A stretch of 64,000 nt of DNA from NCBI GenBank assembly GCA_045809795.1, contig JBJMXD010000005.1, positions 225,177 to 289,176 of the forward strand, given 5' to 3'. This document shows, piece after piece, positions 31,372 to 44,656 of the stretch (positions are counted from its first letter, which is position 1; each line of letters starts with the position of its first letter). Origin of the DNA: Chthoniobacterales bacterium (GTDB lineage Bacteria > Verrucomicrobiota > Verrucomicrobiia > Chthoniobacterales > UBA10450). The translations under genes were made by a program, and so were the position numbers. Below the pieces are notes generated by a model. It worked only from the letters and a program-made list of their open reading frames with translations, made no database searches and had not been told where the DNA came from.

Positions 31372-33213
31372 TTGAGCAGGATACAAGCCGACAAGCCCTG
31401 CCGTCGCGCCGTGGCTCGCGGGTTGCTCCCCTGCACATTTGTCCCTGTCCTGACCGGGCGCTTCGATAAATTGACTTTGGAGCGGGGCATAGAAAGCTTC
31501 ATCAACTTGGAACATCCTCACAATAAAATCGAGCGTTCGATCCTGAAGATCATTCTTTGGACAGTCGGGCTGATTCTGCTCGTCGCCATCGGCGGAGTGG
31601 TTGGCTTTCGCCAGTTTAGAGCATGGCAACAACGGCGACTGGTCGCGGAGGCCTACGGGTTGGTCGCGCAAGGTGATTATCATCGCGCCAGTCTCGATGC
31701 CCGGCGCATCCTCCAGATTAATCCCGATAGCGCGGAGGGTTGCCGAATCATGGCCCGGCTTTCCGAGATCGCTGGCACGCGCGGGGCGTTGGACTGGCGA
31801 CGGCGTGTGATGGAGCTCGGTAACGCTACGCCTGACGATTTGATTCTTTTGGCCCGCGCTGCTGTGAAGTTCGACGATCGCCAGACGGCGGACGTCGCGA
31901 TCGGGAAGCTGCCGGCGAGTGCGAAAGAGACGGCGGATTACCACGCTTTGCTCGCGGACATTGCCTTTGCCCGGCGCGATGGCGTTGAAATGGAACGCCA
32001 GCTCAGCGAAGCGGCGCGCCTCGCCCCGACAAATAAGGATTATGCGATGCGGCTGGCCTCGTTGCGGTTGGGGGCGAACGATCCAAGCATTCGCGCCGAG
32101 GGAAAACAGGCGCTCCTGGAAATGCAAAAGGATCCGGCCTTACGCCGTGACGCGACCCGTTACCTCGTGGAGGATGCGTTGCGGCAAAAGCTGACTCTTA
32201 CCGCGCTCGAACTGGCGCGTCAGCTCGACAGTTTCCCGGACAAGTCCTTTTCCGACCGGCTCCTTCTTCTCACCGCGCTCGATGCCGCGAAAGACAACGG
32301 ATTCGCCGCGTTTTTGGAGGAGATGAAAACGGCCTCAGCTGACGATCCGGAACGCGCGGCGGCGTTACTGACCTGGTTTAACATGCACAGGCGTGAGGCA
32401 GACGCGATCGCGTGGAGCGCGAACCTGCCACCTGGAGTGCTCGGACAAAAAATGGTGCAAATAGCACTGTCCGATTCGTACGTCGCGGCAAAAGACTGGA
32501 CGGGCTTGCAGCGGCTCGTGAACTCGGGCAACTGGGGGACGGTCGATTTTCTCCGGAACGCGCTTGATGCCCGCGCCCTGCGTGAACTTGGGAACCAGCC
32601 GGAATCCGAGGTGCAGTGGAATGAAGCGATCAAAAAAGTGGCCGGCGATTCGCGGCAGGCGCTGACCCTGGCGGAAACGGTTGAGAAATGGGGCTGGCGC
32701 CCGGAAGCGATCGATCTGCTCTGGTTGCTCGCGAAAGATCCGGTGAGAGCGGACGACGCGCTTCGCACTTTATACGGCTACTTCGCCAGGAACGATGACA
32801 CGGAAAACATGTATCGCGTTTTGCTCCACCAGGTGGAATTGCATCCCGACGATTTGAACACGCAGAATAATTTCGCGCAGCTTTCGCTCCTCCTGAACCT
32901 GAATACCGCTCGCGGACAAAAGGCCGCCCGTGACGTTTACGAGAAAAGTCCAAAGAATCCCGCTTACGTTTCGACCTACGCCTTCGCGCTTCACACAGCC
33001 GGCGATTCGAAGAAAGCACTGAAAATTCTGGAGACTTTAACGCCGGAACAACTGCACAAGCCCGAGATCGCGGCCTACTACGGCGTGATTCTGGCCGCGG
33101 GCGGCGATCAGACCCGCGCTGCTGAATTTCTCGATATCGGCGAGAAAGCGACCCTCTTGCCGCAGGAAAAAGACCTCATCGAAAAAGCGCGCCGTTCCCT
33201 GGCGCAACGCTGA
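31372..33213 (+). CDS. TPR-repeat protein with an N-terminal membrane anchor, divergent from the exosortase
   Basis: ~570-613 aa. TM segment ILKIILWTVGLILLVAIGGVV followed by many TPR-like helices. The start is uncertain: no ATG precedes the TM, and TTG candidates lie at 31372 and 31507. Confidence 0.7.
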   Translation: MSRIQADKPCRRAVARGLLPCTFVPVLTGRFDKLTLERGIESFINLEHPHNKIERSILKIILWTVGLILLVAIGGVVGFRQFRAWQQRRLVAEAYGLVAQGDYHRASLDARRILQINPDSAEGCRIMARLSEIAGTRGALDWRRRVMELGNATPDDLILLARAAVKFDDRQTADVAIGKLPASAKETADYHALLADIAFARRDGVEMERQLSEAARLAPTNKDYAMRLASLRLGANDPSIRAEGKQALLEMQKDPALRRDATRYLVEDALRQKLTLTALELARQLDSFPDKSFSDRLLLLTALDAAKDNGFAAFLEEMKTASADDPERAAALLTWFNMHRREADAIAWSANLPPGVLGQKMVQIALSDSYVAAKDWTGLQRLVNSGNWGTVDFLRNALDARALRELGNQPESEVQWNEAIKKVAGDSRQALTLAETVEKWGWRPEAIDLLWLLAKDPVRADDALRTLYGYFARNDDTENMYRVLLHQVELHPDDLNTQNNFAQLSLLLNLNTARGQKAARDVYEKSPKNPAYVSTYAFALHTAGDSKKALKILETLTPEQLHKPEIAAYYGVILAAGGDQTRAAEFLDIGEKATLLPQEKDLIEKARRSLAQR

Positions 33214-33238
33214 ATTCTGGGCCAGATTACGCCCGAAC

Positions 33239-33260
33239 CGGTCCCTCGGACCGATTCTTA
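33239..33260 (+). terminator. Possible intrinsic terminator after the TPR gene
   Basis: CGGTCC-CTC-GGACCG hairpin followed by ATTCTTAATT. Confidence 0.35.
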
Positions 33261-33298
33261 ATTAGACAAGTTTCAACCCGGCTGCGGTCCGGCATGCT

Positions 33299-34168
33299 AT
33301 GAAACCAGGAAAATTCACCCACACCATCGCCGTCCTGCTTTCTTCGATTACGGCGTTCTTTACCCACTCCGCGCCGGCCGCGGTCCCGGCGTCGAAGATC
33401 AAGCTCAGCAAGAAATCGAATTCGTCGAAGAAAGAAGGCCTCCTCAAGGTCGATCCTATTTCTTACACGCCCATGGCGAGCAACGATCCCCCATTGAACA
33501 ACCCCGGCGAAAAGTTTCCGTGGCGAAAAGAAATCGTCACCACCGTTTTTTGGATCGGCGAGAAACCGACCGCGAATAATCCCGTACCGAATCGCTCCAG
33601 TTCATGGGACGCAAACTGGACGAAGAACTACGGCGGGTTCGACGATCCGGAGAAATCGCATCGGCACGATTTCATTCCGGCGAAGTTCACCCCGCGACAA
33701 AATCCGTTCTACTGCGCGCTGCCTTACAACGACAAAGCGCGCGACGGCCACCGGCCCGAAGCGCCGCGCGTCGTGCCGTGGTTCAACGAAGCGTATCAAG
33801 GCCCCGGCGTTTCCACCTGCAAAGGCCGCTGGATCGCGATCCGCAAAGGAAACAAGGTCGCCTACGCGCAATGGGAAGATGCCGGTCCATTTCGGACCGA
33901 TCACTGGCAATACGTTTTCGGCAACGAACGTCCGAAACCGAACCTGAACAAAGGCGCCGGGCTCGACGTTTCACCAGCCGTCCGCGATTACCTGGGCATT
34001 GACGAGACCGACGTAACCGATTGGAAATTCGTCGACTTCAGCGAAGTACCTCACGGCCCCTGGTCCAAGCTCGGTGATAACAACACGTTTGTGATCAACG
34101 CCCGTAAAGGCATCGCGACGGTGGCCTCCGCGAATCCTACCCCCGGCGGCGTGACGGTTCGGCCCTAG
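33299..34168 (+). CDS. Hypothetical secreted protein (possibly the first, degenerate cassette)
   Basis: 289 aa. Signal peptide (IAVLLSSITAFFTHSAPA), then a conserved-looking Trp/Pro-rich core. The TAG stop lies in a degenerate R''-like CCCTAGC. Confidence 0.65.
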   Translation: MKPGKFTHTIAVLLSSITAFFTHSAPAAVPASKIKLSKKSNSSKKEGLLKVDPISYTPMASNDPPLNNPGEKFPWRKEIVTTVFWIGEKPTANNPVPNRSSSWDANWTKNYGGFDDPEKSHRHDFIPAKFTPRQNPFYCALPYNDKARDGHRPEAPRVVPWFNEAYQGPGVSTCKGRWIAIRKGNKVAYAQWEDAGPFRTDHWQYVFGNERPKPNLNKGAGLDVSPAVRDYLGIDETDVTDWKFVDFSEVPHGPWSKLGDNNTFVINARKGIATVASANPTPGGVTVRP

Positions 34169-34263
34169 CAACGACATGACGCCCCGTTCCCTCCCGACTT
34201 CGCCGTGATAGGCGAAAAAATGTTCGCCTTTAAATACGAACCTTCGTCTAATTCTCGTTAGAC
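34163..34263 (+). repeat. attC0, a decayed attC-like site (R''-like CCCTAGC ... R' GTTAGAC)
   Basis: The 3' end CGTCTAATTCTCGTTAGAC matches the attC7 3' end. The 5' half is only loosely similar, and the L-box pairing is lost. Confidence 0.5.
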
Positions 34264-34264
34264 G

Positions 34265-34561
34265 TTGAGAGCCGTGCACTATCACGATGGAACACCAGTG
34301 AAGCTCGGCGATCGGGTGCGTGCGGCCATTCCGGGCGGCACAGCCCCGGCACGCATCGTCATGCTCGGAGACACCTATGAGCATCTGGAGATCGATCCAC
34401 AGTTCCTGAGCTGGGTGAAGCGTGACAGAGTGCTGGAGCCAGCGCATGTTGTGCTCGAGTGGATCGAGGAAAACCCCTTTGCACATGACGATCCGAAATA
34501 TGCTCCAGTCGGAAACTTCATGTTTTCACCGCTCGATTCTGCAGTCACGCGTGACGTCTAA
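34265..34561 (+). CDS. Cassette 1 ORF, hypothetical
   Basis: 98 aa. TTG at 34265 (alternative GTG at 34274) lies 2 nt after the R' core. The stop TAA is the TAA of the attC1 R'' box. No family recognised. Confidence 0.5.
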   Translation: MRAVHYHDGTPVKLGDRVRAAIPGGTAPARIVMLGDTYEHLEIDPQFLSWVKRDRVLEPAHVVLEWIEENPFAHDDPKYAPVGNFMFSPLDSAVTRDV

Positions 34562-34678
34562 CCATGCGATGGAGCGAACGCCGGACCGCTTCGCGTCCAC
34601 ATTTGAGATGACTTCGACACTTCCACTCCGAGCGATGCGCGGTCTCGCCAGCCGTCGCTCATCTTGTTCTCGTTAGAT
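34556..34678 (+). repeat. attC1 (123 bp, loop class I)
   Basis: GTCTAAC...GGAGCGAACG...TTTGAGATGACTTCGACACTTCCACTCCGAGCGA...CGTCGCTCATCTTGTTCTCGTTAGAT. Confidence 0.85.
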
Positions 34679-34725
34679 GACGCGACGTGCCTTCTGGAAT
34701 CACCAAGAAATAGCTCGCGACCCAC

Positions 34726-35124
34726 ATGAGCTCCGATTTTGACCCGCGCCCGGACGAGCCTGCCGGCCACGTCGCGGACTCCTTTGTTCGGATGTTCTTC
34801 GGTGACGACGAGACTCGAGCGGAAGCCCTATCCTGGCTCAAAGCGGGTGGTGACAAGCACACTTTGGGAGAGCTAGCCTCCACTTCCGTATCAGTTCGCT
34901 TAGTCAACGCCGTTTATCGCGCCGGTGCGACGAAGGTTTGGGCCGTCGAGATCGACAGGTATCCCGATGGCAGGGAAAATACTGGCAAGATTGTTATCGA
35001 GTTGCCGGACGAGCCCCGGCTACGCAGTCAAGTCTTGGCGTGGGCGAGTCGGAAATCTAGAGCCAAAGGTTTTGGTGAAATCTACGACGAAAAGCAACAT
35101 TATGTTTTCCTCATGCTGGACTGA
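34726..35124 (+). CDS. Cassette 2 ORF, hypothetical cytoplasmic
   Basis: 132 aa with an ATG start. Stops 3 nt before attC2. Confidence 0.6.
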   Translation: MSSDFDPRPDEPAGHVADSFVRMFFGDDETRAEALSWLKAGGDKHTLGELASTSVSVRLVNAVYRAGATKVWAVEIDRYPDGRENTGKIVIELPDEPRLRSQVLAWASRKSRAKGFGEIYDEKQHYVFLMLD

Positions 35125-35127
35125 GTC

Positions 35128-35250
35128 ATCTAACCAAGCGATGGAGCGAACGGCGACCCGCTTTCGGTCCGCGCGCTCGCCAGCTAGAGTGTCTTTCGTG
35201 AAGGCACAGCGCGCTCTCGGTCGCCGTCGCTCATCTTGTTCTCGTTAGAT
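35128..35250 (+). repeat. attC2 (123 bp, unique loop)
   Basis: ATCTAAC ... GAGCGAACGGCGACC / GGTCGCCGTCGCTC ... GTTAGAT. Confidence 0.85.
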
Positions 35251-35521
35251 GGTGAATGCCGTTCCCAAAGCAGCGAACAAAAGACCAGCGTGGCAGCGCC
35301 GCGCTGTGAGTCAGCTTCAGTGGCGGCATCTTTATGCATGGCTTTTGAGTCTTGGTGTGGCACTTGTCATCGGATACGCCCTTCAGCAATGTGGATTGGC
35401 TTCGGTTCCTTGGGCGCTTTTATTCGTTCTTCCTTTTGTCCTTGCCTCCAGTTTCATGATCCCGCTCGCATATCGTCGCGGCTTGGAGGACGGGAGAGCG
35501 CACCCGTCTGACTCGGAGTGA
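35249..35521 (+). CDS. Cassette 3 ORF, small membrane protein (2 TM)
   Basis: 90 aa. The ATG overlaps the R' core (GTTAGATG). Hydrophobic helices LYAWLLSLGVALVIGYAL and WALLFVLPFVLASSFMI. Confidence 0.55.
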   Translation: MVNAVPKAANKRPAWQRRAVSQLQWRHLYAWLLSLGVALVIGYALQQCGLASVPWALLFVLPFVLASSFMIPLAYRRGLEDGRAHPSDSE

Positions 35522-35542
35522 GCTGATGCAGCAGCGCCGACC

Positions 35543-35665
35543 ATCTAACCATGCGATGGAGCGAACGGCGGACCGCCGCATGACAAGTATGAAGGAAAAA
35601 TTAAGAATTAAGAAGTATCCGGAGCGCGCTCCCGTCCGCCGTCGCTCATCTTGTTCTCGTTAGAT
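35543..35665 (+). repeat. attC3 (123 bp, loop class III)
   Basis: ATCTAAC ... GAGCGAACGGCGGAC ... ATGACAAGTATGAAGGAAAAATTAAGAATTAAGAAGTAT ... GTCCGCCGTCGCTC ... GTTAGAT. Confidence 0.85.
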
Positions 35666-36206
35666 GTTTCGACTGCACGTAACACGAACGATTTGGTTCG
35701 CAGCACTCGCGTGTGGGCTTGCCGCGATGGGTGAGGACACGCCAGTAACCAGCGCTCAGCAGCCCGCGCTCGAGAAGCTCGCAGGATCGGTCGGGGTTTG
35801 GGAGAGCACCACGCGGTATCGATTCGCGCCGGATATGCCTGTCTTTGAGAGCCACAGTGTCGAGACGACGCAGTGGTCCCCGAACCACAAGTTTCTGATT
35901 TCGGACCAGCGAGGAACAATGCCTGACGGGACGATAAACCGGGTCGTTGTCATTACTTGGGATCCGAAGGAGAAGTTGTACAAGCTGGTGGCGATCTATG
36001 CCGGAGGAGAAACCGAGCAACTGGCAATGACTGTCGAGGGCAGCGTGCGAACCATCGTCTCCTATCGTCACATCGGTGAGCGCATGATTCGCTGTGAGAA
36101 TAAGATGGAAGACACATCACCTACGGAATTTAAGGCCCGCTGCGAATGCACGGATCGGGAAACGAATTGGACCTTCTCGGAGGCAAGCTCAAAGAAAGTG
36201 CAGTGA
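35664..36206 (+). CDS. Cassette 4 ORF, secreted protein (DUF1579-like, tentative)
   Basis: 180 aa. The ATG overlaps the R' core. Signal peptide TIWFAALACGLAAMG. Confidence 0.65.
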   Translation: MFRLHVTRTIWFAALACGLAAMGEDTPVTSAQQPALEKLAGSVGVWESTTRYRFAPDMPVFESHSVETTQWSPNHKFLISDQRGTMPDGTINRVVVITWDPKEKLYKLVAIYAGGETEQLAMTVEGSVRTIVSYRHIGERMIRCENKMEDTSPTEFKARCECTDRETNWTFSEASSKKVQ

Positions 36207-36212
36207 GCCAAC

Positions 36213-36335
36213 ATCTAACCAAACGATGGAGCGAACGGCTGGCAGCCATGGAAAGTAAGATTTAAGAATTATGAAGCATGAAACCGCAGCGACGCGCCGT
36301 CCCGCCAGCCGTCGCTCATGTTGTTCTCGTTAGGC
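36213..36335 (+). repeat. attC4 (123 bp, loop class II)
   Basis: ATCTAAC ... GAGCGAACGGCTGGC ... GGAAAGTAAGATTTAAGAATTATGAAG ... GCCAGCCGTCGCTC ... GTTAGGC. Confidence 0.85.
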
Positions 36336-36353
36336 GACTAGCACGCGTCACCC

Positions 36354-36704
36354 ATGGATCCATTTCCAGAACCGCATGAACTGCTCTCATTCTTCTCGCA
36401 GGAGCCGGAGCTCGCGCACGCCGACACGCCGCCCTTTTACAATACCCTCAGATTCAGCGGGCGCGTCGGTGAGATCGCTTACGTCGTCAGGATTTCTCCG
36501 TCAGATCGCGAGCTACGGCTGCAGACGCAGTCCGACCAGATGAATGTCGATCTTGCCGTCACAGATGTCGCTGGCCTTACGGTTCACGAGGGGCCGACGG
36601 AGTCCCTTATGATGGCGACGTTTTCGCCTGACAGTCGACGCGGGCTTCTTAAGTTTCGTCTGCATCCACGCCTTGAGGTCGAATGGCCGTTCGAGAAGCA
36701 TTGA
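36354..36704 (+). CDS. Cassette 5 ORF, hypothetical
   Basis: 116 aa with an ATG start. No signal peptide. Confidence 0.55.
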   Translation: MDPFPEPHELLSFFSQEPELAHADTPPFYNTLRFSGRVGEIAYVVRISPSDRELRLQTQSDQMNVDLAVTDVAGLTVHEGPTESLMMATFSPDSRRGLLKFRLHPRLEVEWPFEKH

Positions 36705-36714
36705 CGACCGGTCG

Positions 36715-36837
36715 CCTAACCATGCGATGGAGCGAACGGCGGACCGCTGTGCGCTCCACTTTTGAGATGACTTCCACACTTCCACTCCGAGCGACGCGCG
36801 CTCTGGTCCGCCGTCGCTCATCTTGTTCTCGTTAGGC
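36715..36837 (+). repeat. attC5 (123 bp, loop class I)
   Basis: GCCTAAC ... GAGCGAACGGCGGACC ... TTTGAGATGACTTCCACACTTCCACTCCGAGCGA ... GGTCCGCCGTCGCTC ... GTTAGGC. Confidence 0.85.
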
Positions 36838-36839
36838 GT

Positions 36840-38072
36840 ATGAAACCACGCCCTCGATATTATTATGCCGCACTGCTCGGTGTCTTGTGTGCCGCTGGTT
36901 CGGGCCCCCTTCGGGCCGATCACGTGGATGACGTCGTAGCGGCGCAGATAAGACAACACCACATTCCGGGACTCGCGCTGGCAATCATCGAAGGAGGTGC
37001 GGTCGCCAGAGAACAAGGTTATGGATACGCGGACACAAGCCAGAGGACGGCAGTGACGCCTTCAACGCTTTTTCAGGCCGGCTCCGTCAGCAAAGCCGTC
37101 TCCGCATTGGGCGCGCTGCATCTCGTTGATCAGGGCAAAGCGTCACTAGACGAGGATATCAACTCGAAGCTGCGGACATGGCAAATACCGCAGAACGGGT
37201 TCACAAAAGAACATGCCGTGACGCTGCGGCTGATTCTCAGCCATAGTGCGGGTCTGACAGTGCATGGGTTTTCAGGCTATCCGGTGGACGCACCGCTCCC
37301 GTCCCTCGTGCAGATTCTCAACGGGCAAAGGCCGGCTAATTCAGCCGCGGTTCGCGTTGAAGAAGTTCCGGGGAGCCATTGGAATTACTCGGGAGGAGGC
37401 TATCTCGTCATTCAGCAAATGATAATGGATCTTACAGGAAAGCCGTTTGGGCAGTATATGCATGAGACGGTTCTGCAGCCTCTCGGGATGGTTTCCAGCT
37501 CGTATGCACAGCCGTTGCCAGCCGCAATGGCCGACCACGCGGCGACGGGTTACGCCGGTCTGTTTCGCCGTGCCATCAAAGGCCGCTGGCGTGTTCATCC
37601 GGAGTTGGCGGCCGCGGGTCTGTGGACGACGCCTGGCGATCTGGCTCGCTTCTTGATAGGTATCCAGCGCTCACGCGCTGGCACCTCCAATCCGATCATC
37701 TCGCGGTCCACCACGCGTCAAATGCTGACGAACCAAAAAAATGATGATGGTCTCGGCGTATTTATCGGAGGCGAGCCGCTCAAGTTCGGCCACGACGGAA
37801 GCAACGTGGGGTTCGATACCATGACCATCGCTTTTGCCGATAGAGGGCAAGGCGCAGTTATCATGATGAACACCAATGTGGACATCAAAGCTCTGAAAGA
37901 GATTCTGTTGGATGCTATCGGCGAGCAGTATCGCTGGCCGGGTTATCCAGTTGGATCGCGCCGAACGCCTAACCATGCGATGCAGCCAACCCCTGGCCGG
38001 CGTACGACCCAGTTTTCCATGACTTTAACCTCTCATCCCGCAGCCACGCGCGCCCACGCCAGCGGTGGCTGA
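36840..38072 (+). CDS. Cassette 6 ORF, secreted beta-lactamase-fold serine hydrolase (class C / family VIII esterase / PBP-like)
   Basis: 410 aa. Signal peptide YYYAALLGVLCAAGSGPLRA. Has SxxK (FQAGSVSKAV), YSGGGY and HDGSNVGF motifs. The last ~35 codons run through attC6. Confidence 0.85.
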   Translation: MKPRPRYYYAALLGVLCAAGSGPLRADHVDDVVAAQIRQHHIPGLALAIIEGGAVAREQGYGYADTSQRTAVTPSTLFQAGSVSKAVSALGALHLVDQGKASLDEDINSKLRTWQIPQNGFTKEHAVTLRLILSHSAGLTVHGFSGYPVDAPLPSLVQILNGQRPANSAAVRVEEVPGSHWNYSGGGYLVIQQMIMDLTGKPFGQYMHETVLQPLGMVSSSYAQPLPAAMADHAATGYAGLFRRAIKGRWRVHPELAAAGLWTTPGDLARFLIGIQRSRAGTSNPIISRSTTRQMLTNQKNDDGLGVFIGGEPLKFGHDGSNVGFDTMTIAFADRGQGAVIMMNTNVDIKALKEILLDAIGEQYRWPGYPVGSRRTPNHAMQPTPGRRTTQFSMTLTSHPAATRAHASGG

Positions 38073-38089
38073 TCTTGTTCTCGTTAGGT
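37967..38089 (+). repeat. attC6 (123 bp, divergent, class IV-related loop)
   Basis: GCCTAAC ... CAGCCAACCCCTGGC / GCCAGCGGTGGCTG ... GTTAGGT. Fully contained in the 3' end of the preceding ORF. Confidence 0.8.
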
Positions 38090-38107
38090 GACTAGAACGT
38101 CCTCCCT

Positions 38108-38461
38108 GTGGCCAATCCCGACAAACGCACTTCGTATCTCAAAAAGCTCGTCAGTGCCGCGCGCGCCGTCATCACCTATCAGGTCGGTTTGCCATTCGGC
38201 TGCGCGCGCATTGGCGGGCTCCTCTCTGCGCTGCGCCCGTTCGAGCCGCTCGATTATCCTGTATTCGACGAGTACCGTAATGCCATCGTCAATCTGCCGG
38301 TGGGGACGGAGCGGCTTCATTGGGCCCGTGAGAGTCTCCGCGAGAAGGACATTCGGCTCGAAGCCATCACTGGTGAGTTTCGCGATCGCATTTTCGAGGC
38401 CTGTTATGACATCATTGATCGCCATGCCGAGCCTGTTGACAAGCAACGCGACGTCACCTAA
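38108..38461 (+). CDS. Cassette 7 ORF, hypothetical
   Basis: 117 aa with a GTG start. The stop TAA is the TAA of the attC7 R'' box. Confidence 0.5.
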   Translation: MANPDKRTSYLKKLVSAARAVITYQVGLPFGCARIGGLLSALRPFEPLDYPVFDEYRNAIVNLPVGTERLHWARESLREKDIRLEAITGEFRDRIFEACYDIIDRHAEPVDKQRDVT

Positions 38462-38578
38462 CCAAGCGATGGAGCGAACGGCCGGCAGTCCTGGAAAGTA
38501 AGATTTAAGAATTATGAAGGATGAAACCAAAGCCACGCGCTCTCCGGCCAGCCGTCGCTCATCTAATTCTCGTTAGAT
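38456..38578 (+). repeat. attC7 (123 bp, loop class II)
   Basis: ACCTAAC ... GGAAAGTAAGATTTAAGAATTATGAAGG ... CCAGCCGTCGCTCATCTAATTCTCGTTAGAT. Confidence 0.85.
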
Positions 38579-38972
38579 GGCTCCGCGCTCCTTTTGGCGG
38601 TCTCGCTTGATCCTCCTTTGCGCATTTCTGCTGGTTGCCGGATGCGTATCACTGACAAGTGTCGTTCTCGCACCCAATCCCCACCCGCGTGAGGCATTAA
38701 CCCTCGATTTGCGCCTGGCGTACGTGCACATTCACCGTCAAACCATAATGGACACGCTTCTCGCGATCGACAGCGCCATCAAACGACAGTCCGGCCGGAG
38801 GCATGGCCTCGCCTTCTCCGTGGAATACGGAGGGGGCAAAAATGTTTCCATTGATGCTCACGACATGACTGTGAGGAGCTTGCTCCTCCAGATCTGTCGC
38901 CAGTCTGACCTCATTTGCGAGATGGACGATCCGAATTCGCCTTACGACGTTTCCATCACCTCCCGAAACTAG
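38577..38972 (+). CDS. Cassette 8 ORF, lipoprotein
   Basis: 131 aa. The ATG overlaps the R' core. Lipobox LLVAGC. Confidence 0.65.
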   Translation: MAPRSFWRSRLILLCAFLLVAGCVSLTSVVLAPNPHPREALTLDLRLAYVHIHRQTIMDTLLAIDSAIKRQSGRRHGLAFSVEYGGGKNVSIDAHDMTVRSLLLQICRQSDLICEMDDPNSPYDVSITSRN

Positions 38973-38981
38973 AGTGAAAAC

Positions 38982-39104
38982 ATCTAACCATGCGATGGAG
39001 CGAACGGCGGACCGTCCGTATGCAAGGCGGAATTAAAAATTAAGAATTATGAAACAAGCAACGCGCGCTCTCGTCCGCCGTTGCTCATCTTGTTCTCGTT
39101 AGGC
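38982..39104 (+). repeat. attC8 (123 bp, class III variant)
   Basis: ATCTAAC ... GAGCGAACGGCGGAC ... AATTAAAAATTAAGAATTATGAAAC ... GTCCGCCGTTGCTC ... GTTAGGC. Confidence 0.85.
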
Positions 39105-39112
39105 CTCTCCAA

Positions 39113-39802
39113 ATGCGCTGGTTACAAATCTTCGCCATTCCAGCTGTTGTGGTAACCGCTTTTGCGGCAGACCAAGCTATCACAGTCGGCGGCGACCGAG
39201 CGAAGGAACTGTCCCGGGAAGACATCAGCAATATCGTATTGCTTTGCAAACAGACGCGACCTTCGGAACGTCTGTGGGCGGTTGTTACCGATAAGAGCCC
39301 TGCCGCACCAAACCAGATGTTACGCGCCACAGTCTATTTCTATCCGACTTTGATTCAGTCTCGGCTCAGGACGGGTTCGGCAGCTTCGGTGACCGCGGGA
39401 GTATCTGCCGACAAATTCGTCAGCATACAATCTCGGCAAGGACGCTGGATTAGCAGCGGAGCGCAATTAGCCAAGTATGCACAAGTTGCCATCGATGATA
39501 GCCAGTTCCTGAATGCACCTGGAGACATTCGCGACCCCCAAGAAGGCCCATTTTTTGTCGCCAACGAGATTTTAGACGCGGACATTGTTTCGATCGTCGA
39601 TTCCTTGCGCGCTTTCTTACGGGCCGATCCCAGTTCCGCCGGACCGGCGCGCAGGACTCATCCAATCACCATCATGATGGGTTCCAAGAGTCATGCTGAG
39701 GTCTGGTCGAGTGGGGGCGATAAGCATTTTGACACCTACGTGCTCGACAAGCACGGCGAGAAGTGGAGCATTTCTAAGACTGGACAGTTCGACGCACAAT
39801 GA
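39113..39802 (+). CDS. Cassette 9 ORF, secreted protein
   Basis: 229 aa. Signal peptide MRWLQIFAIPAVVVTAFAA. Confidence 0.65.
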   Translation: MRWLQIFAIPAVVVTAFAADQAITVGGDRAKELSREDISNIVLLCKQTRPSERLWAVVTDKSPAAPNQMLRATVYFYPTLIQSRLRTGSAASVTAGVSADKFVSIQSRQGRWISSGAQLAKYAQVAIDDSQFLNAPGDIRDPQEGPFFVANEILDADIVSIVDSLRAFLRADPSSAGPARRTHPITIMMGSKSHAEVWSSGGDKHFDTYVLDKHGEKWSISKTGQFDAQ

Positions 39803-39818
39803 CAAGTCGCCCCACGAC

Positions 39819-39941
39819 GCCTAACCAAGCGATGGAGCGAACGGCGGACCGCCGGATGACAAGTATGAAGGAAGAATTAAGAATTAAGAAGTATTCGGAG
39901 CGCGCTCTCGTCCGCCGTCGCTCATCTTGTTCTCGTTAGGC
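39819..39941 (+). repeat. attC9 (123 bp, loop class III)
   Basis: GCCTAAC ... ATGACAAGTATGAAGGAAGAATTAAGAATTAAGAAGTAT ... GTTAGGC. Nearly identical to attC3. Confidence 0.85.
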
Positions 39942-39943
39942 CC

Positions 39944-40318
39944 ATGCAGCGCGTCTTGATGCCATTGGTCACCTTCATCGGTGCGATTATCGCATCTACG
40001 GTGATGGCGGCGTCGGATATCCCATTAATCTGCGAGGAGAACCTTGCCACCGAACACAAGCGGTGCGGCATCTCTGACGCGCAGGCTCGTGAGGCCATGC
40101 GCTTCGTCAGGAGGATTCCCGGTGTGAGTCATCAGATCATCACGATCGATGCGCTCGATCTACCGCAGGTTGTCGTCACCACAGGCGAGCCATTCGAGCG
40201 GGGCCACACCGTCTTTTTGCGACGGATGGGTCGGCGTTGGACAGTGGAGAAGACGGTCCCGTGGACCAAGAAAGATTGGATCATCTTAGGCGCGAACAGG
40301 CCTAACCAAACGCTGTAG
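39944..40318 (+). CDS. Cassette 10 ORF, secreted protein
   Basis: 124 aa. Signal peptide LMPLVTFIGAIIASTVMAA. The reading frame passes through the attC10 R'' box. Confidence 0.6.
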   Translation: MQRVLMPLVTFIGAIIASTVMAASDIPLICEENLATEHKRCGISDAQAREAMRFVRRIPGVSHQIITIDALDLPQVVVTTGEPFERGHTVFLRRMGRRWTVEKTVPWTKKDWIILGANRPNQTL

Positions 40319-40423
40319 CGAACGCCTACCCGTCGTTCGCCCAACATTTCCTATGACTAAACCATTTCACCTCCGATCGACGCTCGCCTCTGGTAGGCGT
40401 CACTGATCTCTTTCTGGTTAGAC
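40300..40423 (+). repeat. attC10 (124 bp, loop class IV)
   Basis: GCCTAAC ... GTAGCGAACGCCTACC ... CATGACTAAACCATTTCAC ... GGTAGGCGTCACTG ... GTTAGAC. Confidence 0.8.
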
Positions 40424-40425
40424 CT

Positions 40426-41028
40426 ATGAGCACGCCATTCCAAGTCGTCGCGCTGGTCGGACTAGCGGCCTGGCTGTGCCCGAAGGCCTACGCGCCGATC
40501 TACGGTGGCTATCCAGGTTTGCATTCGCTCATCAAACAGTCAGAAATTGTCGCCGCCGTCACGATACTCGAGCGGTTGTCGGACGACGATTTCGGTGATT
40601 CCGCGCGATACAAGATACAGTTCGACAAGCTGCTGAAGGGATCCGCGTCAGAGAAGCAAGTCGTCGCTTACCTCCGCTACCTCGAAATCATTCCAGAGGA
40701 GGAGATGCGACGCACCCCTCGGCCGGGGCCGCAGCCATCAACCCATTACTTTGCTCTAACGGACCGGCTTGAGCCGTTCCGTAGGCAAGCGCGGTTCGTT
40801 GTCTTCTTAACGAAAGCGAGGAAAGAGGTCGAGACGGCATACGAAAACGTTAACTGCATGGGATCGACATTTCCTTTGTCCCCGCTAAGAGATCTTGACG
40901 CGCTCAAGATGGATTCATTGCCGGATACCCTGATTCTCCTTTTCCGAGAGTATGTTGACTTCAGGCGCACAGAGCTGAAGGAAGTTGAGGCGCAGCTAAG
41001 TGAATTTGTTCATCATCGCGACGAATAG
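40426..41028 (+). CDS. Cassette 11 ORF, secreted protein
   Basis: 200 aa. Signal-like N-terminus FQVVALVGLAAWLCPKAYA. The TAG stop abuts attC11. Confidence 0.65.
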   Translation: MSTPFQVVALVGLAAWLCPKAYAPIYGGYPGLHSLIKQSEIVAAVTILERLSDDDFGDSARYKIQFDKLLKGSASEKQVVAYLRYLEIIPEEEMRRTPRPGPQPSTHYFALTDRLEPFRRQARFVVFLTKARKEVETAYENVNCMGSTFPLSPLRDLDALKMDSLPDTLILLFREYVDFRRTELKEVEAQLSEFVHHRDE

Positions 41029-41151
41029 GTCTAACCAAGCGATGGAGCGAACGGCTGGCAGCAGTGGAAAGTAAGATTTAAGAAGTATGAAGGAAAAAAC
41101 CGCAGCCACGCGCTGTTCCCCCAGCCGTCGCTCATCTTGTTCTCGTTAGAC
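41029..41151 (+). repeat. attC11 (123 bp, loop class II)
   Basis: GTCTAAC ... GAGCGAACGGCTGG ... GGAAAGTAAGATTTAAGAAGTATGAAGG ... CCAGCCGTCGCTC ... GTTAGAC. Confidence 0.85.
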
Positions 41152-41154
41152 CCA

Positions 41155-41682
41155 GTGAAAACGTTCGCCCTCTTGCTCTGCGTTGTTGGAATCGCGGCTG
41201 GCGAAACCCGGTCGATTAGCGATCTGACCCCGAGCGGCATAGTGGGTAATTGGGAGTCCCTGGCAGCGCGGGCGGACGGGGTACCGGTCCCCATCGTGCT
41301 CCAAATGTCTTTTACCGCTCCGGACGCCGCACACCTCGTGGTCAGTAACTCCACGGATCCGGAGTCTACTCCTCGGTTTCTTGGGAAGCTGACGAGTTCC
41401 AGCCTAATCAAAGGGAAGATCCATCTTAGATTTTCTGCAGTGCCTCCATATCCGATTCCTGCCGAGGGAGTGGATTATGGATATGATCGAGTAGAGATCG
41501 ACGGGCGCGCGACCGATGCCGGTGAGCTCTCCTCGGTGGAAGGAACGCTTGTGATGCACGGTACAAAGGAGAAGGAAGTGACGTATCGCGTTTTTTTCCT
41601 TAAGTCGCTTTGGGTGCATGAGCTTGCTCAATATTCGAGAGCCGCTCAGGAAATCATAAAGAATGTGCAAGCTCACCATTAG
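41155..41682 (+). CDS. Cassette 12 ORF, secreted protein
   Basis: GTG at 41155 gives (M)KTFALLLCVVGIAAG. The track start at 41137 is a TTG inside attC11 and was rejected. Confidence 0.6.
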   Translation: MKTFALLLCVVGIAAGETRSISDLTPSGIVGNWESLAARADGVPVPIVLQMSFTAPDAAHLVVSNSTDPESTPRFLGKLTSSSLIKGKIHLRFSAVPPYPIPAEGVDYGYDRVEIDGRATDAGELSSVEGTLVMHGTKEKEVTYRVFFLKSLWVHELAQYSRAAQEIIKNVQAHH

Positions 41683-41804
41683 TCTAACCACGCGATGCAG
41701 CGAACGCCTACCCGTCGTTCGCCTGACATTTCCCATGACTAAATCATTCCACTTCCGACCAACGCTCGCCTCGGTAGGCGTCGCTGATCTCTTTCTCGTT
41801 AGAT
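41682..41804 (+). repeat. attC12 (123 bp, loop class IV)
   Basis: GTCTAAC ... CAGCGAACGCCTACC ... CATGACTAAATCATTCCAC ... GGTAGGCGTCGCTG ... GTTAGAT. Confidence 0.85.
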
Positions 41805-42312
41805 GGTAACCGCCAAGACTATTACCACGCTGCTCGCCATAGCACCGATCGTCGTCCTCGTGGTGGCTTGGGCACGGCGCTTCATATCCAACACCGATGG
41901 TGGGCTCGTTTCGGTCGATGACGTTCCGCAGCTGCTATCGGCGCTTACTGGCACCGGCAAGGATGGCTCGTTTTGGGTCGTGCTTGTCCCGAACACGGCG
42001 CGAGAGGATGGCAATTTCGCGAATCTACAATTCTCGATCGAAGGTGACCGCGTCGGGATGGATTGGGTGTTGCTCGCCAAGCGCAATATTGAAGACCAAG
42101 GCGCTTTTACCCAGTTTGTCGCTGCCGCTGGGGCGACTGTGCAAGACATAACGATGAATGGCGTCCGGTATCTCCGAGTAAGTGACGGTCCCGATCTGGC
42201 AAAGCTCGGTCAGGACTTTCTTCAGCAGGTTTATCACGTGGCGCCAGAAGACAAGCTACAGCTGATCATCACGGATTTCGCATGGACACCGAAGACGGCT
42301 GCGAAAAATTAA
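41803..42312 (+). CDS. Cassette 13 ORF, N-terminally anchored protein
   Basis: 169 aa. The ATG overlaps the R' core. TM segment TTLLAIAPIVVLVVAWA. The 3' end runs into the truncated attC13. Confidence 0.6.
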   Translation: MVTAKTITTLLAIAPIVVLVVAWARRFISNTDGGLVSVDDVPQLLSALTGTGKDGSFWVVLVPNTAREDGNFANLQFSIEGDRVGMDWVLLAKRNIEDQGAFTQFVAAAGATVQDITMNGVRYLRVSDGPDLAKLGQDFLQQVYHVAPEDKLQLIITDFAWTPKTAAKN

Positions 42313-42366
42313 GAAGTGCTCAACGTCCGCTCAGGCCAGCCGTTGCTCGCCCTGTTCTCATTAGAC
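42306..42366 (+). repeat. attC13, a 5'-truncated attC remnant (class III-like 3' half, R' degenerated to ATTAGAC)
   Basis: AAATTAAGAAGTGCT...CCAGCCGTTGCTCGCCCTGTTCTCATTAGAC. No R''/L'' half is present. Confidence 0.6.
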
Positions 42367-42379
42367 CAACGCAGGCGAA

Positions 42380-42697
42380 ATGAATGGATTATTGCTCGTC
42401 GTTACTTCTATTTCGGGCATGTTGGCATTCGCGTTTTTCCTTCTCGCGTTCATGTCGCTCACGGCGATCGACGCAGCAGAGAGGGCCGAGATAAATGAGG
42501 CCGCGCGACGGTTCTTTCCAGGAGACGGCTTCTTTGCGCAGTTAAATCGGCGTGGGTACATCCAAAGCGAAGCAGGGTCGGCGTCCCGGATGGGCGATCA
42601 TTGGCGGGCACGCCCACAAATTCGCACGTTCCTTTCACTGGGCGCCGGCTTTCTCCTTATCGCTGTGATTTGCGGGCATTTCGCCACGCTGCCATAA
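42380..42697 (+). CDS. Cassette 14 ORF, small membrane protein (2 TM)
   Basis: 105 aa; LLLVVTSISGMLAFAFFLLAFM and FLSLGAGFLLIAVICG. Confidence 0.55.
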   Translation: MNGLLLVVTSISGMLAFAFFLLAFMSLTAIDAAERAEINEAARRFFPGDGFFAQLNRRGYIQSEAGSASRMGDHWRARPQIRTFLSLGAGFLLIAVICGHFATLP

Positions 42698-42710
42698 AGT
42701 CGTATTAAAG

Positions 42711-42831
42711 GTCTAACCAGGTGATGCAGCGAACCGTGCTTGATTTTGGTTCACGTTTCAGAGCAGCAAAAGCTTTAGCTCGCCGCCAACACGCTCTCGC
42801 GGACGGAAGTTGGTCTTGTGTCTCATGAGGA
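42711..42831 (+). repeat. attC14, an attC with intact R'' (GTCTAAC) but a degenerate 3' end (…GTCTTGTGTCTCATGAGGA)
   Basis: The 5' GTCTAACCAGGTGATGCAGCGAAC matches the family. The 3' end resembles ATCTTGTTCTCGTTAG with substitutions. Confidence 0.55.
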
Positions 42832-43085
42832 GCCGACGTGTCGTGAAAACTCTCAGCGTGATTGTCGGGGGAATTCTTGTCGCGGTCGGTGTTGTCGGCA
42901 GCGCAGCGGGCGTCTTCGCGTTAATTGATCCAAAAGGTTCAAAGGCGGCAGATGATGGAGATCCATTCGGCCCGCCGTCGGGCGTTCTGGAGTCTTCGGT
43001 CATGCTGGGTGTCTACGTCGCAATTACCGCGGTTGGGGTTTACCTGTTGTGGAGGTCACGCCGGAGGCAGCGCATATCCACCTAA
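42825..43085 (+). CDS. Cassette 15 ORF, small membrane protein (2 TM)
   Basis: 86 aa from ATG at 42825, which occupies the position of the degenerate R'. The stop TAA is the TAA of the terminal R'' stub. Confidence 0.5.
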   Translation: MRSRRVVKTLSVIVGGILVAVGVVGSAAGVFALIDPKGSKAADDGDPFGPPSGVLESSVMLGVYVAITAVGVYLLWRSRRRQRIST

Positions 43086-43100
43086 CGAGGCGATCAGAAG
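43080..43100 (+). repeat. attC15, a terminal attC stub (ACCTAACGAGGCGAT...)
   Basis: Only R'' plus ~8 nt are retained. Similarity ends where the convergent kinase stop codon (43094-43096) begins. Confidence 0.5.
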
Positions 43101-44656
43101 AGTTCCGGATGATCGTCGGCGACGGGTTCGGGGGTGATGATGGAGCGGATTTTGGCGAGGAGATCGTTGAAGTCGTAGGGCTTTTGGATCGTGTCGATGA
43201 CCCCGGCTTTCAACATTTCGGAACGAATCGCGGGTTCTAGATACCCGCTAGCGACGATGGCGCGGACGCCGGGGCGGCTCTCTTTCATTTTCAGAAAGGC
43301 TTCGCGGCCACCGAGGCGGGGCAGACCGAGATCGCAAACGACGAGGCCAATCTCGGCACTATGGGTTTCGAAAAGAGAGACGGCTTCGATGCCGTCCTTC
43401 GCGGGAAGAACGCGGAAGCCTTCGCTCTCCAGGATGGAAACGCCGAGTTCGCGGAGCATGTCTTCGTCTTCCACCAGCAGGATGGTTTGCGGAATGTCCT
43501 GGCGCGGCGCGCCGGTCCGATCGGGGCCCAGTTGCTCGGCGGCGACGTGTTTGACCGGTAAATAAATGATGAAGCTGGTGCCGGTGCCGGGCTCGCTCTC
43601 GACCTGGACGAAACCGCGGTGGTTGTTGACCACGCCGTAAACGACGGAGAGCCCGAGGCCGGTGCCTTTGCCGCGCTCTTTCGTGCTGAAGAACGGCTCG
43701 AAAATGTGCGACTTTACCTCACGCGTCATGCCGATGCCGGAGTCGCGCACCCGAATGCAGGCGTAATTGTCCGCGGTCACGCCGGAAAAAATTTCCATGA
43801 GATCGGAGCCGGGAGTGATGCCGGTGCTGAGAGTCAGCGTGCCGCCCTCGGGCATCGCGTCCCGGGCGTTCACGCAAAGATTCAGCAGGACTTGGTGAAG
43901 CTGGCTCTTATCGGCGGTGACGAGCGAAAGTTCGGAGGCGAGGTCGAGATTGAAGCTGATCGTCTTCGGAAATGTTGCCTGGAGCATCGGTTCGAGATCG
44001 CGCACCAGCGCGTTCAGATCGACCGACGAAAAACGCGCTTCAGTCTGGCGCGCTGAGGTCAGCAATTGCTGAACGAGGGCCGCGCCGCGATCGACGGCTT
44101 CCTTGATGACTTTGATCGCGCCGGGAAATTCGTTTGGCTTCGCGTGCGAGCTTTCGAGTTTGTTGGTGTACCCGAGAATGATCGCAAGGATGTTGTTGAA
44201 ATCGTGCGCGATGCCGGCGGCCAGCGTGCCCAGGCCTTCCATCTTCTGCGCCTGGACGAGTTGCTCCTCGAGCCTCTTCCGTTTTGTATCGTTGAAGAGG
44301 TAAACGTGGAGATCGACCAATTCGCCGGCCGTGAAATTTCCAACCAACCGGCCGACGACATACACGGGGTTGCCGTTGCGCTGCGTCATTTCCAATTCGT
44401 GGCGGTCGACGATTCCGTGCTGCCGCACCATCTCCAGCAATTCGACTCCGTCCTGCCGGCTCCGAAGCAACGAAAGAACGTTCGCGGACCGCGCTTCTTC
44501 CGCCGATTCAAATCCAAACATGGTTAAGGCGGCCGGATTGCACCCGATAATCTGGCCATCCGTCCGCATCACGAGGATGCCGGTGAAGTTGTCAGCGACG
44601 AAACGCAGGGCGCGTTTCTCCATTTCGTCTGGTGCGTCGGAAGAATGGTTCGTCAC
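43094..44656 (-). CDS. Hybrid sensor histidine kinase/response regulator (PAS - HisKA - HATPase - REC)
   Basis: 520 aa. H-box GIAHDFNNILAIILGY, G-boxes DSGIGM and GTGLGLS, and a C-terminal receiver (ILLVEDEDMLRE...VVCDLGLP). The GTG start overlaps the upstream stop (GTGA). Confidence 0.85.
   Translation of the reverse strand: MTNHSSDAPDEMEKRALRFVADNFTGILVMRTDGQIIGCNPAALTMFGFESAEEARSANVLSLLRSRQDGVELLEMVRQHGIVDRHELEMTQRNGNPVYVVGRLVGNFTAGELVDLHVYLFNDTKRKRLEEQLVQAQKMEGLGTLAAGIAHDFNNILAIILGYTNKLESSHAKPNEFPGAIKVIKEAVDRGAALVQQLLTSARQTEARFSSVDLNALVRDLEPMLQATFPKTISFNLDLASELSLVTADKSQLHQVLLNLCVNARDAMPEGGTLTLSTGITPGSDLMEIFSGVTADNYACIRVRDSGIGMTREVKSHIFEPFFSTKERGKGTGLGLSVVYGVVNNHRGFVQVESEPGTGTSFIIYLPVKHVAAEQLGPDRTGAPRQDIPQTILLVEDEDMLRELGVSILESEGFRVLPAKDGIEAVSLFETHSAEIGLVVCDLGLPRLGGREAFLKMKESRPGVRAIVASGYLEPAIRSEMLKAGVIDTIQKPYDFNDLLAKIRSIITPEPVADDHPELF

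Follow-up and report, generated by a model that had tools for sequence, protein, structure and literature searches.

Cassette starts pair with their own attC sites in a probable chromosomal integron array of a soil Chthoniobacterales bacterium

At 34202–43093 of a 64,000-nucleotide window (the whole stretch of DNA analysed here) from a soil Chthoniobacterales bacterium (Verrucomicrobiota), short + strand genes alternate with repeats of about 123 nucleotides (nt). The locus raises the question of what these units are, and whether the bases that open each unit belong with the repeat that they seem to terminate or with the repeat at the unit's own 3' end. We read the region as very probably a chromosomal integron gene-cassette array that has kept its attachment site attI and lost its integrase gene intI; attI stands at the head and is followed by 15 co-oriented cassettes with attC sites of ~123 nt, of which the last three are decayed. 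In the terms of IntegronFinder, the array is a cluster of attC sites without an integrase (CALIN) that still carries attI. The CALIN concept covers attC clusters that have no integron integrase (Cury et al. 2016, PMC4889954). Set against its criterion of at least two attC and no nearby integrase, the array has 14–15 attC, with no intI in the 31 kb upstream or the 21 kb downstream.

In the established view of integrons, each such cassette would consist of a single promoterless open reading frame (ORF) and its ~123-nt attC, and recombination mediated by the integrase IntI would move cassettes in and out with a crossover in the conserved core G|TTRRRY. A circular cassette would recombine at G|TT with attI, after which its own TTRRRY would lie at its 5' end. 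The 5' end of a cassette would then be the last six bases of the R' box of its circular form, and the R' that physically closes an arrayed attC would be a hybrid, with G from the cassette and TTRRRY from the next one. Such a hybrid would lead to perfect complementarity within each cassette and to only chance-level complementarity inside a physical repeat. Cassettes and attC (the 59-base element), with the crossover at G|TT of GTTRRRY, were reportedly described by Hall, Stokes and colleagues in the 1990s. The cassette-wise rule is a textbook consequence of integron recombination, equivalent to the standard definition of a cassette, and is mechanistically nothing new: the crossover has been placed between G and TT of the core (PMC3518468), and the ACID database paper defines a cassette and "its" circular-form attC in the same way (PMC2674596).

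All GTTRRRY and RYYYAAC sites in the window were listed, and 33500–43500 was read directly. R' cores (GTTRRRY) lie at 34257, 34672, 35244, 35659, 36329, 36831, 38083, 38572, 39098, 39935, 40417, 41145, and 41798, with ATTAGAC at 42360, and R'' boxes (RYYYAAC) lie at 34556, 35128, 35543, 36213, 36714, 37967, 38456, 38982, 39819, 40300, 41029, 41682, and 42711. Cassette 13 was left out of the test because attC13 has no 5' half. As the first-pass annotation had proposed, in all 13 testable cassettes the G is followed by six bases that are exactly complementary, in reverse, to the R'' at that cassette's own downstream attC, whereas R'' and R' inside one physical repeat (array order) match in only 5 of 12; the outer bases thus fit their cassette-wise partner better than the adjacent repeat. 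Every heptamer quoted in that annotation is right, including the disagreeing boxes of attC1 (GTCTAAC vs GTTAGAT) and attC4 (ATCTAAC vs GTTAGGC). Its entry for cassette 14 (C14; cassettes are abbreviated in this way below) needs a small correction: start TTAGAC and R'' GTCTAAC do match, but the preceding base is A, not G (ATTAGAC at 42360). The core variants among the 13 cassettes are GAC (four), GAT (four), GGC (four), and GGT (one), and the exact probability that random pairing of 13 starts with 13 R'' boxes gives 13 matches is 2.2e-6; this result was reached once in 200,000 permutations. The complementary runs are 7–11 bp long and reach at least 8 bp in 11 of the 13 cassettes, with 11 bp in C11 and 10 bp in C7, as had been stated. 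The mean extension past 7 bp is 2.0 bp with the own partner and 0.78 bp with other partners of the same core.

The circularisation suggested by the first-pass annotation was performed in silico by joining R'' through G to either the own or the array-order TTRRRY plus five bases and folding the bottom strand with DNA parameters. The circularised attC was the more stable in 12 of 12 cases, with a mean of -26.2 kcal/mol compared with -23.3 kcal/mol for array order. Among 14 candidate starts, the own start ranked first in 7 of 12 cases and within the top four in the remaining cases. Like the sequence pattern, these hairpin energies are direct observations, and so is the generality of the rule across genomes described below.

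To place the array among its relatives, contigs representing one genome per species were scanned with a 21-mer from the attC 3' end. At least 118 loci with the same attC family were obtained (designated by L numbers; the window itself is not among them), almost all in Chthoniobacterales, Verrucomicrobiae or Candidatus Udaeobacter soil metagenome-assembled genomes. attC ends in the relatives were located by fuzzy matching, and all cassette counts for relatives are among the matches listed. The core matches cassette-wise in 256 of 315 cassettes vs 109 of 333 in array order; when partners were shuffled 1000 times, ~80 of 315 matched and never more than 103. Watson-Crick pairing with the own start, assessed for 230 cassettes, is 92%, 90%, 85%, and 67% at positions 6, 7, 8, and 9, compared with 58%, 57%, 43%, and 36% for the next cassette's start; from position 10 on, pairing drops toward background. 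In effect, the R''/R' stem of this attC family is 9 bp long; this accounts for the complementarity past the 7-bp core that had been noticed in most cassettes of the window and sets a bound to it. The rule is thereby extended, on 315 cassettes, to a large and little-studied integron family of abundant soil Verrucomicrobia. Candidatus Udaeobacter (Chthoniobacterales) is among the most abundant soil bacteria, and a literature search found no relevant paper on integrons in Udaeobacter. Four contigs with this attC family (L019, L051, L056, and L109) come from bins labelled Terriglobales, Acidobacteria or Bryobacteraceae. Each of these contigs is short (2.8–9.3 kb), and they could reflect mis-binning of repeat-rich contigs or cross-phylum cassette transfer.

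Cassettes of the window also occur elsewhere with other neighbours, a comparison that the first-pass annotation had suggested. For C5, L049 has a counterpart with 91% identity. The two are alike from GTTAGGCGACTAGC across the attC as far as the next GTTAGGC and no further, and both the preceding attC and the following cassette are different in L049. The homologue of C10 in L102 shares 68% amino acid identity. The window copy of C10 ends in GTTAGGCC and GGCCTAAC (GTTAGGC / GCCTAAC) while the L102 copy has GTTAGAC / GTCTAAC, a compensatory double change. Up to two homologous pairs were counted with changes of this kind. In 18 of 28 homologous cassette pairs the start and R'' are identical, and the next cassette's start differs in most. 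Kept ends with changed neighbours are the evolutionary signature of units that are mobile with boundaries at the core.

The repeats have the anatomy of attC sites. Twelve are complete with both R'' and R', one is 5'-truncated, and one has a decayed R'; the length is 123–124 nt, and the ends are ~80% identical between sites while the centres are ~46% identical. When folded, the bottom strand forms R and L stems separated by an unpaired spacer of 8 nt on the ' side and 5 nt on the '' side, and a variable loop; the '' arm of the L stem bears two extrahelical bases with the spacing T-N6-C. Across 110 attC sites, the L''/L' inner inverted repeats form a stem that is kept as structure rather than sequence: the stem pairs are 91–100% paired and covary (e.g. 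GC:76/CG:27, GC:71/CG:21/UA:11, and GC:47/UA:47). A search of 33000–44000 against Rfam (E-value mode), which holds no attC family, gave no match, and fuzzy searches of both strands found no stray attC ends elsewhere in the window. The "variable" centres group into a small number of subfamilies, found repeatedly both in the array and in different genomes, for example 34585–34640 with 36745–36800, 35575–35625 with 39850–39900, and 36245–36290 with 38490–38535 and 41060–41105. One subfamily contains ..TTTTGAGATGACTTCCACACTTCCACTCCGAGCGA.., others ..AAGAATTAAGAAGTAT.. or ..GGAAAGTAAGATTTAAGAATTATGAAG.., which suggests that attC templates are reused during cassette formation.

Codons are built into the boxes. 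GTTAGAT cores read GTTAGATG, so that the ATG start overlaps R' in C3, C4, C8, and C13 (35244–35251, 35659–35666, 38572–38579, and 41798–41805), and the TAA of R'' (CTAAC) is the stop codon of C1 (34556–34562) and C7 (38456–38462). Each of the 15 cassettes has a single + strand ORF, which starts 5–54 nt past the G and stops in or beside R''. The cassettes appear to be packed to the base, with seemingly no room for a ribosome-binding site of their own.

The head of the array, 34202–34263 (+ strand), appears to be a genuine attI. It ends in the core GTTAGAC (G at 34257) and contains the pairs GGCGAA..TTCGCC and ACGAA..TTCGTC followed by an 8-nt spacer, TAATTCTC. The 61 nt preceding the first crossover (GCCGTGATAGGCGAAAAAATGTTCGCCTTTAAATACGAACCTTCGTCTAATTCTCGTTAGA) align with the sequence directly 3' of a co-oriented intI in L018, L113, L079, and L092. 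A profile of the intI 3' end and attI of the relatives had its sole nhmmer match in the window at 34202–34262 (E=2.7e-13), and the window attI is 92.6% identical to the attI after intI in L123. The sequence before 34257 (cgtctaattctcGTTAGAC) was also considered as a truncated attC, which was ruled out by the position of attI after co-oriented intI in relatives. Similarly, a MAFFT alignment pointed to the remains of an intI 3' end (CATCGCGACG, "HRD...Y") within the last part of the upstream 289-amino acid (aa) gene; this was rejected as alignment noise, as nhmmer gave no support upstream of ~34180. The attI holds two inverted hexamer pairs, GRCGAA..TTCGYC, whose window copies (34202–34256) are GGCGAAaaaatgTTCGCC and ACGAAccTTCGTC. 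All four hexamer copies are changed together in the attI of L079 (GATGTAA..TTACGC, GACGTAgTTACATC), which suggests that they may be binding repeats for IntI, or hairpins, evolving together with the integrase. A sigma-70 consensus scan for the promoter Pc gave 4 sites against 4.5 expected, none near attI, although verrucomicrobial promoters may not fit the consensus; the promoter/terminator scan showed no enrichment.

No integrase gene accompanies this attI. Pfam scans of all plausible ORFs found no tyrosine recombinase or intI in the 64-kb window, tblastn with 11 IntI proteins of relatives gave nothing below E=0.1 there, and an nhmmer profile search detected no intI remnant in it. An intI next to the array is therefore a feature of the relatives and not of the window, in which attI at the head is recognised by homology; both this homology and the lack of intI in 64 kb are read directly from the sequences. 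The array is flanked on the left by a conserved 289-aa gene (33299–34168, + strand), which has no Pfam match and has thousands of Chthoniobacterales orthologues with 77–92% identity, and on the right by a gene for a hybrid histidine kinase/response regulator (43094–44656, - strand; Pfam PAS/HisKA/HATPase_c/Response_reg). The same flanks occur in relatives in other states. In L121 the site is empty: the histidine kinase, Rce1, and NAD synthase genes follow within 12 nt of the 289-aa gene. At this locus L123/L124 carry a complete integron, in which cassettes follow the same attI and a co-oriented intI of 341 aa. In L119, cassettes are present but intI is missing, and attI is reduced to its last 20 nt. 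A blastn comparison of the window with L123 gave two blocks, between which L123 866–2452 (the intergenic region and the whole intI) is absent from the window. A clean deletion of ~1.6 kb has taken the co-oriented intI from the window locus. With its three states (empty, complete, and intI deleted), this one locus documents the origin of a CALIN by integrase loss. L119 (10871–11240) keeps a 350-nt spacer unrelated to the intergenic region of L123 (10874–11430). The loss in L119 is independent of that in the window, and intI loss seems to be recurrent at the locus. L092 and L009 have only IntI fragments of 173–180 aa, and an IS1595-family transposase lies among the cassettes of the complete integron (L123/L124:14879–15835); CALINs have been proposed to arise by way of insertion sequence elements (PMC4889954).

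Among the matches listed, ORFs for tyrosine recombinases adjoin the arrays in 11 loci, three of them as short fragments. Seven of the eight that were scanned score 445–493 bits against the integron integrase model TIGR02249 (cutoff 265), and the recombinase of L113 matches it only in its C-terminal part, with 129 bits. The proteins form two clades, one encoded divergently from the cassettes (L007, L045, L050, L052, and L102) and one co-oriented with them (L009, L018, L079, L092, L104, L113, and L123). Identity is 65–82% and 68–74% within the clades and 57–64% between them. Both clades adjoin one attC family and have a similarly built attI ending in ..CTTCTCGTTAG / ..ATTCTCGTTAG.

Several points weigh against the integron interpretation or restrict it. 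Fifty-nine of the 315 cassettes of relatives break the rule, mostly by a single transition (36 cases), as later mutation or G-T wobble could produce. C takes the place of the canonical G as the second extrahelical base. Because core positions 1–5 (GTTAG) do not vary, the sequences show only that the crossover falls left of core position 6. Recombination itself was not observed, the 64 kb hold no integrase, and current activity of the array is unproven. The cut between G and TT named by the first-pass annotation accordingly holds as core-site recombination left of position 6, with the exact position supplied by the literature (PMC3518468). Its phrase "direct evidence" for circular cassettes is likewise too strong: recombination at the core site stands, while the circles, unobserved here, are the established route. 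Bottom-strand recombination and any present mobility, which would need IntI in trans, are also inferred from established integron biology.

Two other origins of the pattern were weighed. With only four core variants (GAC, GAT, GGC, and GGT) some matches are expected, and the 5 of 12 in array order is about the chance level; the cassette-wise agreement might then be a coincidence. This is refuted by the exact probability given above for 13 of 13 and by the 256 matches among 315 independent cassettes listed, where ~80 were expected and shuffling never exceeded 103, and we regard its probability as negligible. The repeats might instead belong to another intergenic family, such as repetitive extragenic palindromic (REP)-like elements or terminator hairpins, with the complementarity serving mRNA or DNA hairpins that flank genes. 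They do lie downstream of every ORF like terminators, and Rfam offers no match, but the full attC anatomy is present, bona fide integron integrases and attI adjoin the repeats in relatives, homologous units elsewhere break exactly at the GTTAG core with different neighbours, and T-tract terminators were not enriched in the scan. This explanation is very improbable and effectively refuted.

A further possibility concerns the present state of the array rather than its origin, and as such is a variant of the integron explanation that does not contradict it: after the intI deletion nothing would mobilise the cassettes, and the complementarity would be an undecayed historical trace. The 64 kb without intI or an intI pseudogene, the three distal attC that are truncated or mutated, and the promoter scan without signal agree with such a fossil. 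Yet 12 of 14 attC and the attI are intact, the cores are still perfectly paired in 13 of 13 cassettes compared with 81% in relatives, and IntI in trans is plausible, given that relatives often have more than one separate array on a chromosome, some with intI (arrays at 48–64 kb, 392 kb, and 832 kb in OY970345.1, and at 1.36 Mb and 3.33 Mb in CBDCJE010000002.1). We give a dead array about one chance in three. A more elaborate proposal is still a little more doubtful: an undescribed Chthoniobacterales integron family, characterised by attC sites of 123 nt whose R stem measures 9 bp, by R' and R'' boxes that supply start and stop codons, by a single attC pool used by two IntI clades of opposite orientation, and by a chromosomal docking locus that is empty, complete or without intI among close relatives. 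In such a family, the window array, with its intact attI but no intI, would still be loaded and unloaded in trans by the IntI of a second integron in the same genome. Integrons are already known from the phylum Verrucomicrobia (PMC4889954); the 9-bp R stem, the two opposite-orientation IntI clades with one attC family, and the three-state locus are modestly new.

The cassettes share with classical integron cassettes the R''/L''/L'/R' layout, a bottom-strand hairpin in which the spacer is unpaired and two extrahelical bases are spaced T-N6-x, a single promoterless ORF each, and first six bases that pair with their own R''. The attC of the window differ from classical attC in being long (~123 nt) and lineage-specific, in the second extrahelical C for G, in the spacer of 8 vs 5 nt, and in the R stem of 9 bp. 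Vibrio superintegrons with VCR (Vibrio cholerae repeat) sequences are sedentary chromosomal integrons. Like them, the window array is chromosomal, its attC sites form a lineage-specific family whose ends are conserved, and its cassettes have unknown functions, but it is far smaller (15 cassettes), lacks an integrase, and occupies a locus that is present, absent or complete among close relatives. Under the criteria for sedentary chromosomal integrons, presence in all genomes of a species or more than 19 attC (PMC4889954), the array has 14–15 attC, and its locus is occupied in L119 and L123/L124 and empty in L121. With CALINs (PMC4889954) it shares at least two attC, no intI within 4 kb (here 64 kb), and cassettes of mostly unknown function; it differs in the recognisable attI at the head and in an origin by intI deletion shown against a complete integron at the same locus, a history that is not so traceable for most CALINs. 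The chromosomal integrons of Treponema (PMC3607928), part of the "inverted integrase group" (PMC3575428), have intI co-oriented with the cassettes, as do L018, L079, L092, L104, L113, and L123, and T. phagedenis lost intI while attC were kept at a syntenic locus (PMC3607928), which is the closest published parallel. The phylum, integrase, and attC family are other ones, and here a second, divergent IntI clade uses the same attC family.

The pairing rule allows the cassette boundaries, which are direct observations, to be set to base precision; all cassettes are on the + strand. Cassette 1 (34258–34672) has an ORF at 34265–34561 that stops at the TAA of R'', with attC1 at 34556–34678, start TTAGAC, R'' GTCTAAC, and a 9-bp run. 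Cassette 2 (34673–35244; ORF 34726–35124; attC2 35128–35250) starts with TTAGAT and has R'' ATCTAAC, with a 10-bp run. Runs of 10 bp are also found in cassette 3 (35245–35659; ORF 35249–35521; attC3 35543–35665), whose ATG overlaps the core GTTAGATG, cassette 4 (35660–36329; ORF 35664–36206, DUF1579 in Pfam; attC4 36213–36335), and cassette 5 (36330–36831; ORF 36354–36704; attC5 36714–36837). Cassette 6 (36832–38083; ORF 36840–38072; attC6 37967–38089) has a 9-bp run and encodes a PF00144 serine hydrolase. In cassette 7 (38084–38572; ORF 38108–38461, DUF2489; attC7 38456–38578), the start GTTAGGTGAC and the R'' side GTCACCTAAC form the 10-bp run. The run is 8 bp in cassette 8 (38573–39098; ORF 38577–38972; attC8 38982–39104) and cassette 10 (39936–40417; ORF 39944–40318; attC10 40300–40423), and 7 bp in cassette 9 (39099–39935; ORF 39113–39802; attC9 39819–39941) and cassette 12 (41146–41798; ORF 41137/41155–41682; attC12 41682–41804). 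Cassette 11 (40418–41145; ORF 40426–41028; attC11 41029–41151) has the longest run, 11 bp, between start GTTAGACCTAT and R'' side ATAGGTCTAAC.

The distal cassettes are decayed. Cassette 13 (41799–42360; ORF 41803–42312) ends in a remnant of attC13 (42304–42366, R' ATTAGAC) that comprises the 3' end only, with 5 mismatches; its R''/L'' end was not found. Cassette 14 (42361–42825; ORF 42380–42697; start TTAGAC, R'' GTCTAAC) has attC14 at 42711 to ~42831, with 4 mismatches in the 5' end, an undetected 3' end, and R' decayed to ATGAGGA, the ATG of which may now start the last ORF. Past the end of the extent given by the first-pass annotation (34257–42717) lies a further decayed unit, the probable fossil cassette 15 (42826–43093; ORF 42810/42825–43085). 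It starts with ATGAGGA at 42825, and at 43080 an R''-like ACCTAAC abuts the histidine kinase stop. The case for this unit is weak: L121, where the site is empty, shows a comparable GCGA..TCAG stretch at that position, and ACCTAAC at 43080 could instead be original intergenic sequence. The truncated attC13, the mutated R' of attC14, and the possible attC15 stub fit the usual age gradient away from attI.

Most of the cassette proteins have no Pfam family, and exact-sequence look-ups of the C5 and C8 proteins returned no record. The product of cassette 6 has 410 aa, belongs to the PF00144 beta-lactamase family (Pfam E=1.4e-53), and contains an SVSK motif; a beta-lactamase-family serine hydrolase on a cassette has modest relevance to surveys of soil resistance genes. 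Its ORF runs 105 nt into attC6, so that the last ~35 residues are attC-encoded, and this tail accounts for the tblastn matches of cassette 6 to many other attC. The GC content of the array (34264–43090) is 56.1%, compared with 58.9% in the left flank and 58.3% in the right flank. This slightly lower value is consistent with cassettes that may have been drawn from a pool of the same lineage. The array lies among ordinary chromosomal genes, with those for an exosortase, a tetratricopeptide repeat (TPR) protein, and the 289-aa protein upstream and those for the hybrid histidine kinase, NAD synthase, and an Rce1-like protease downstream. An exact look-up of the 289-aa protein returned only a 5.9-kb Logan contig, which ends ~500 nt past the gene.

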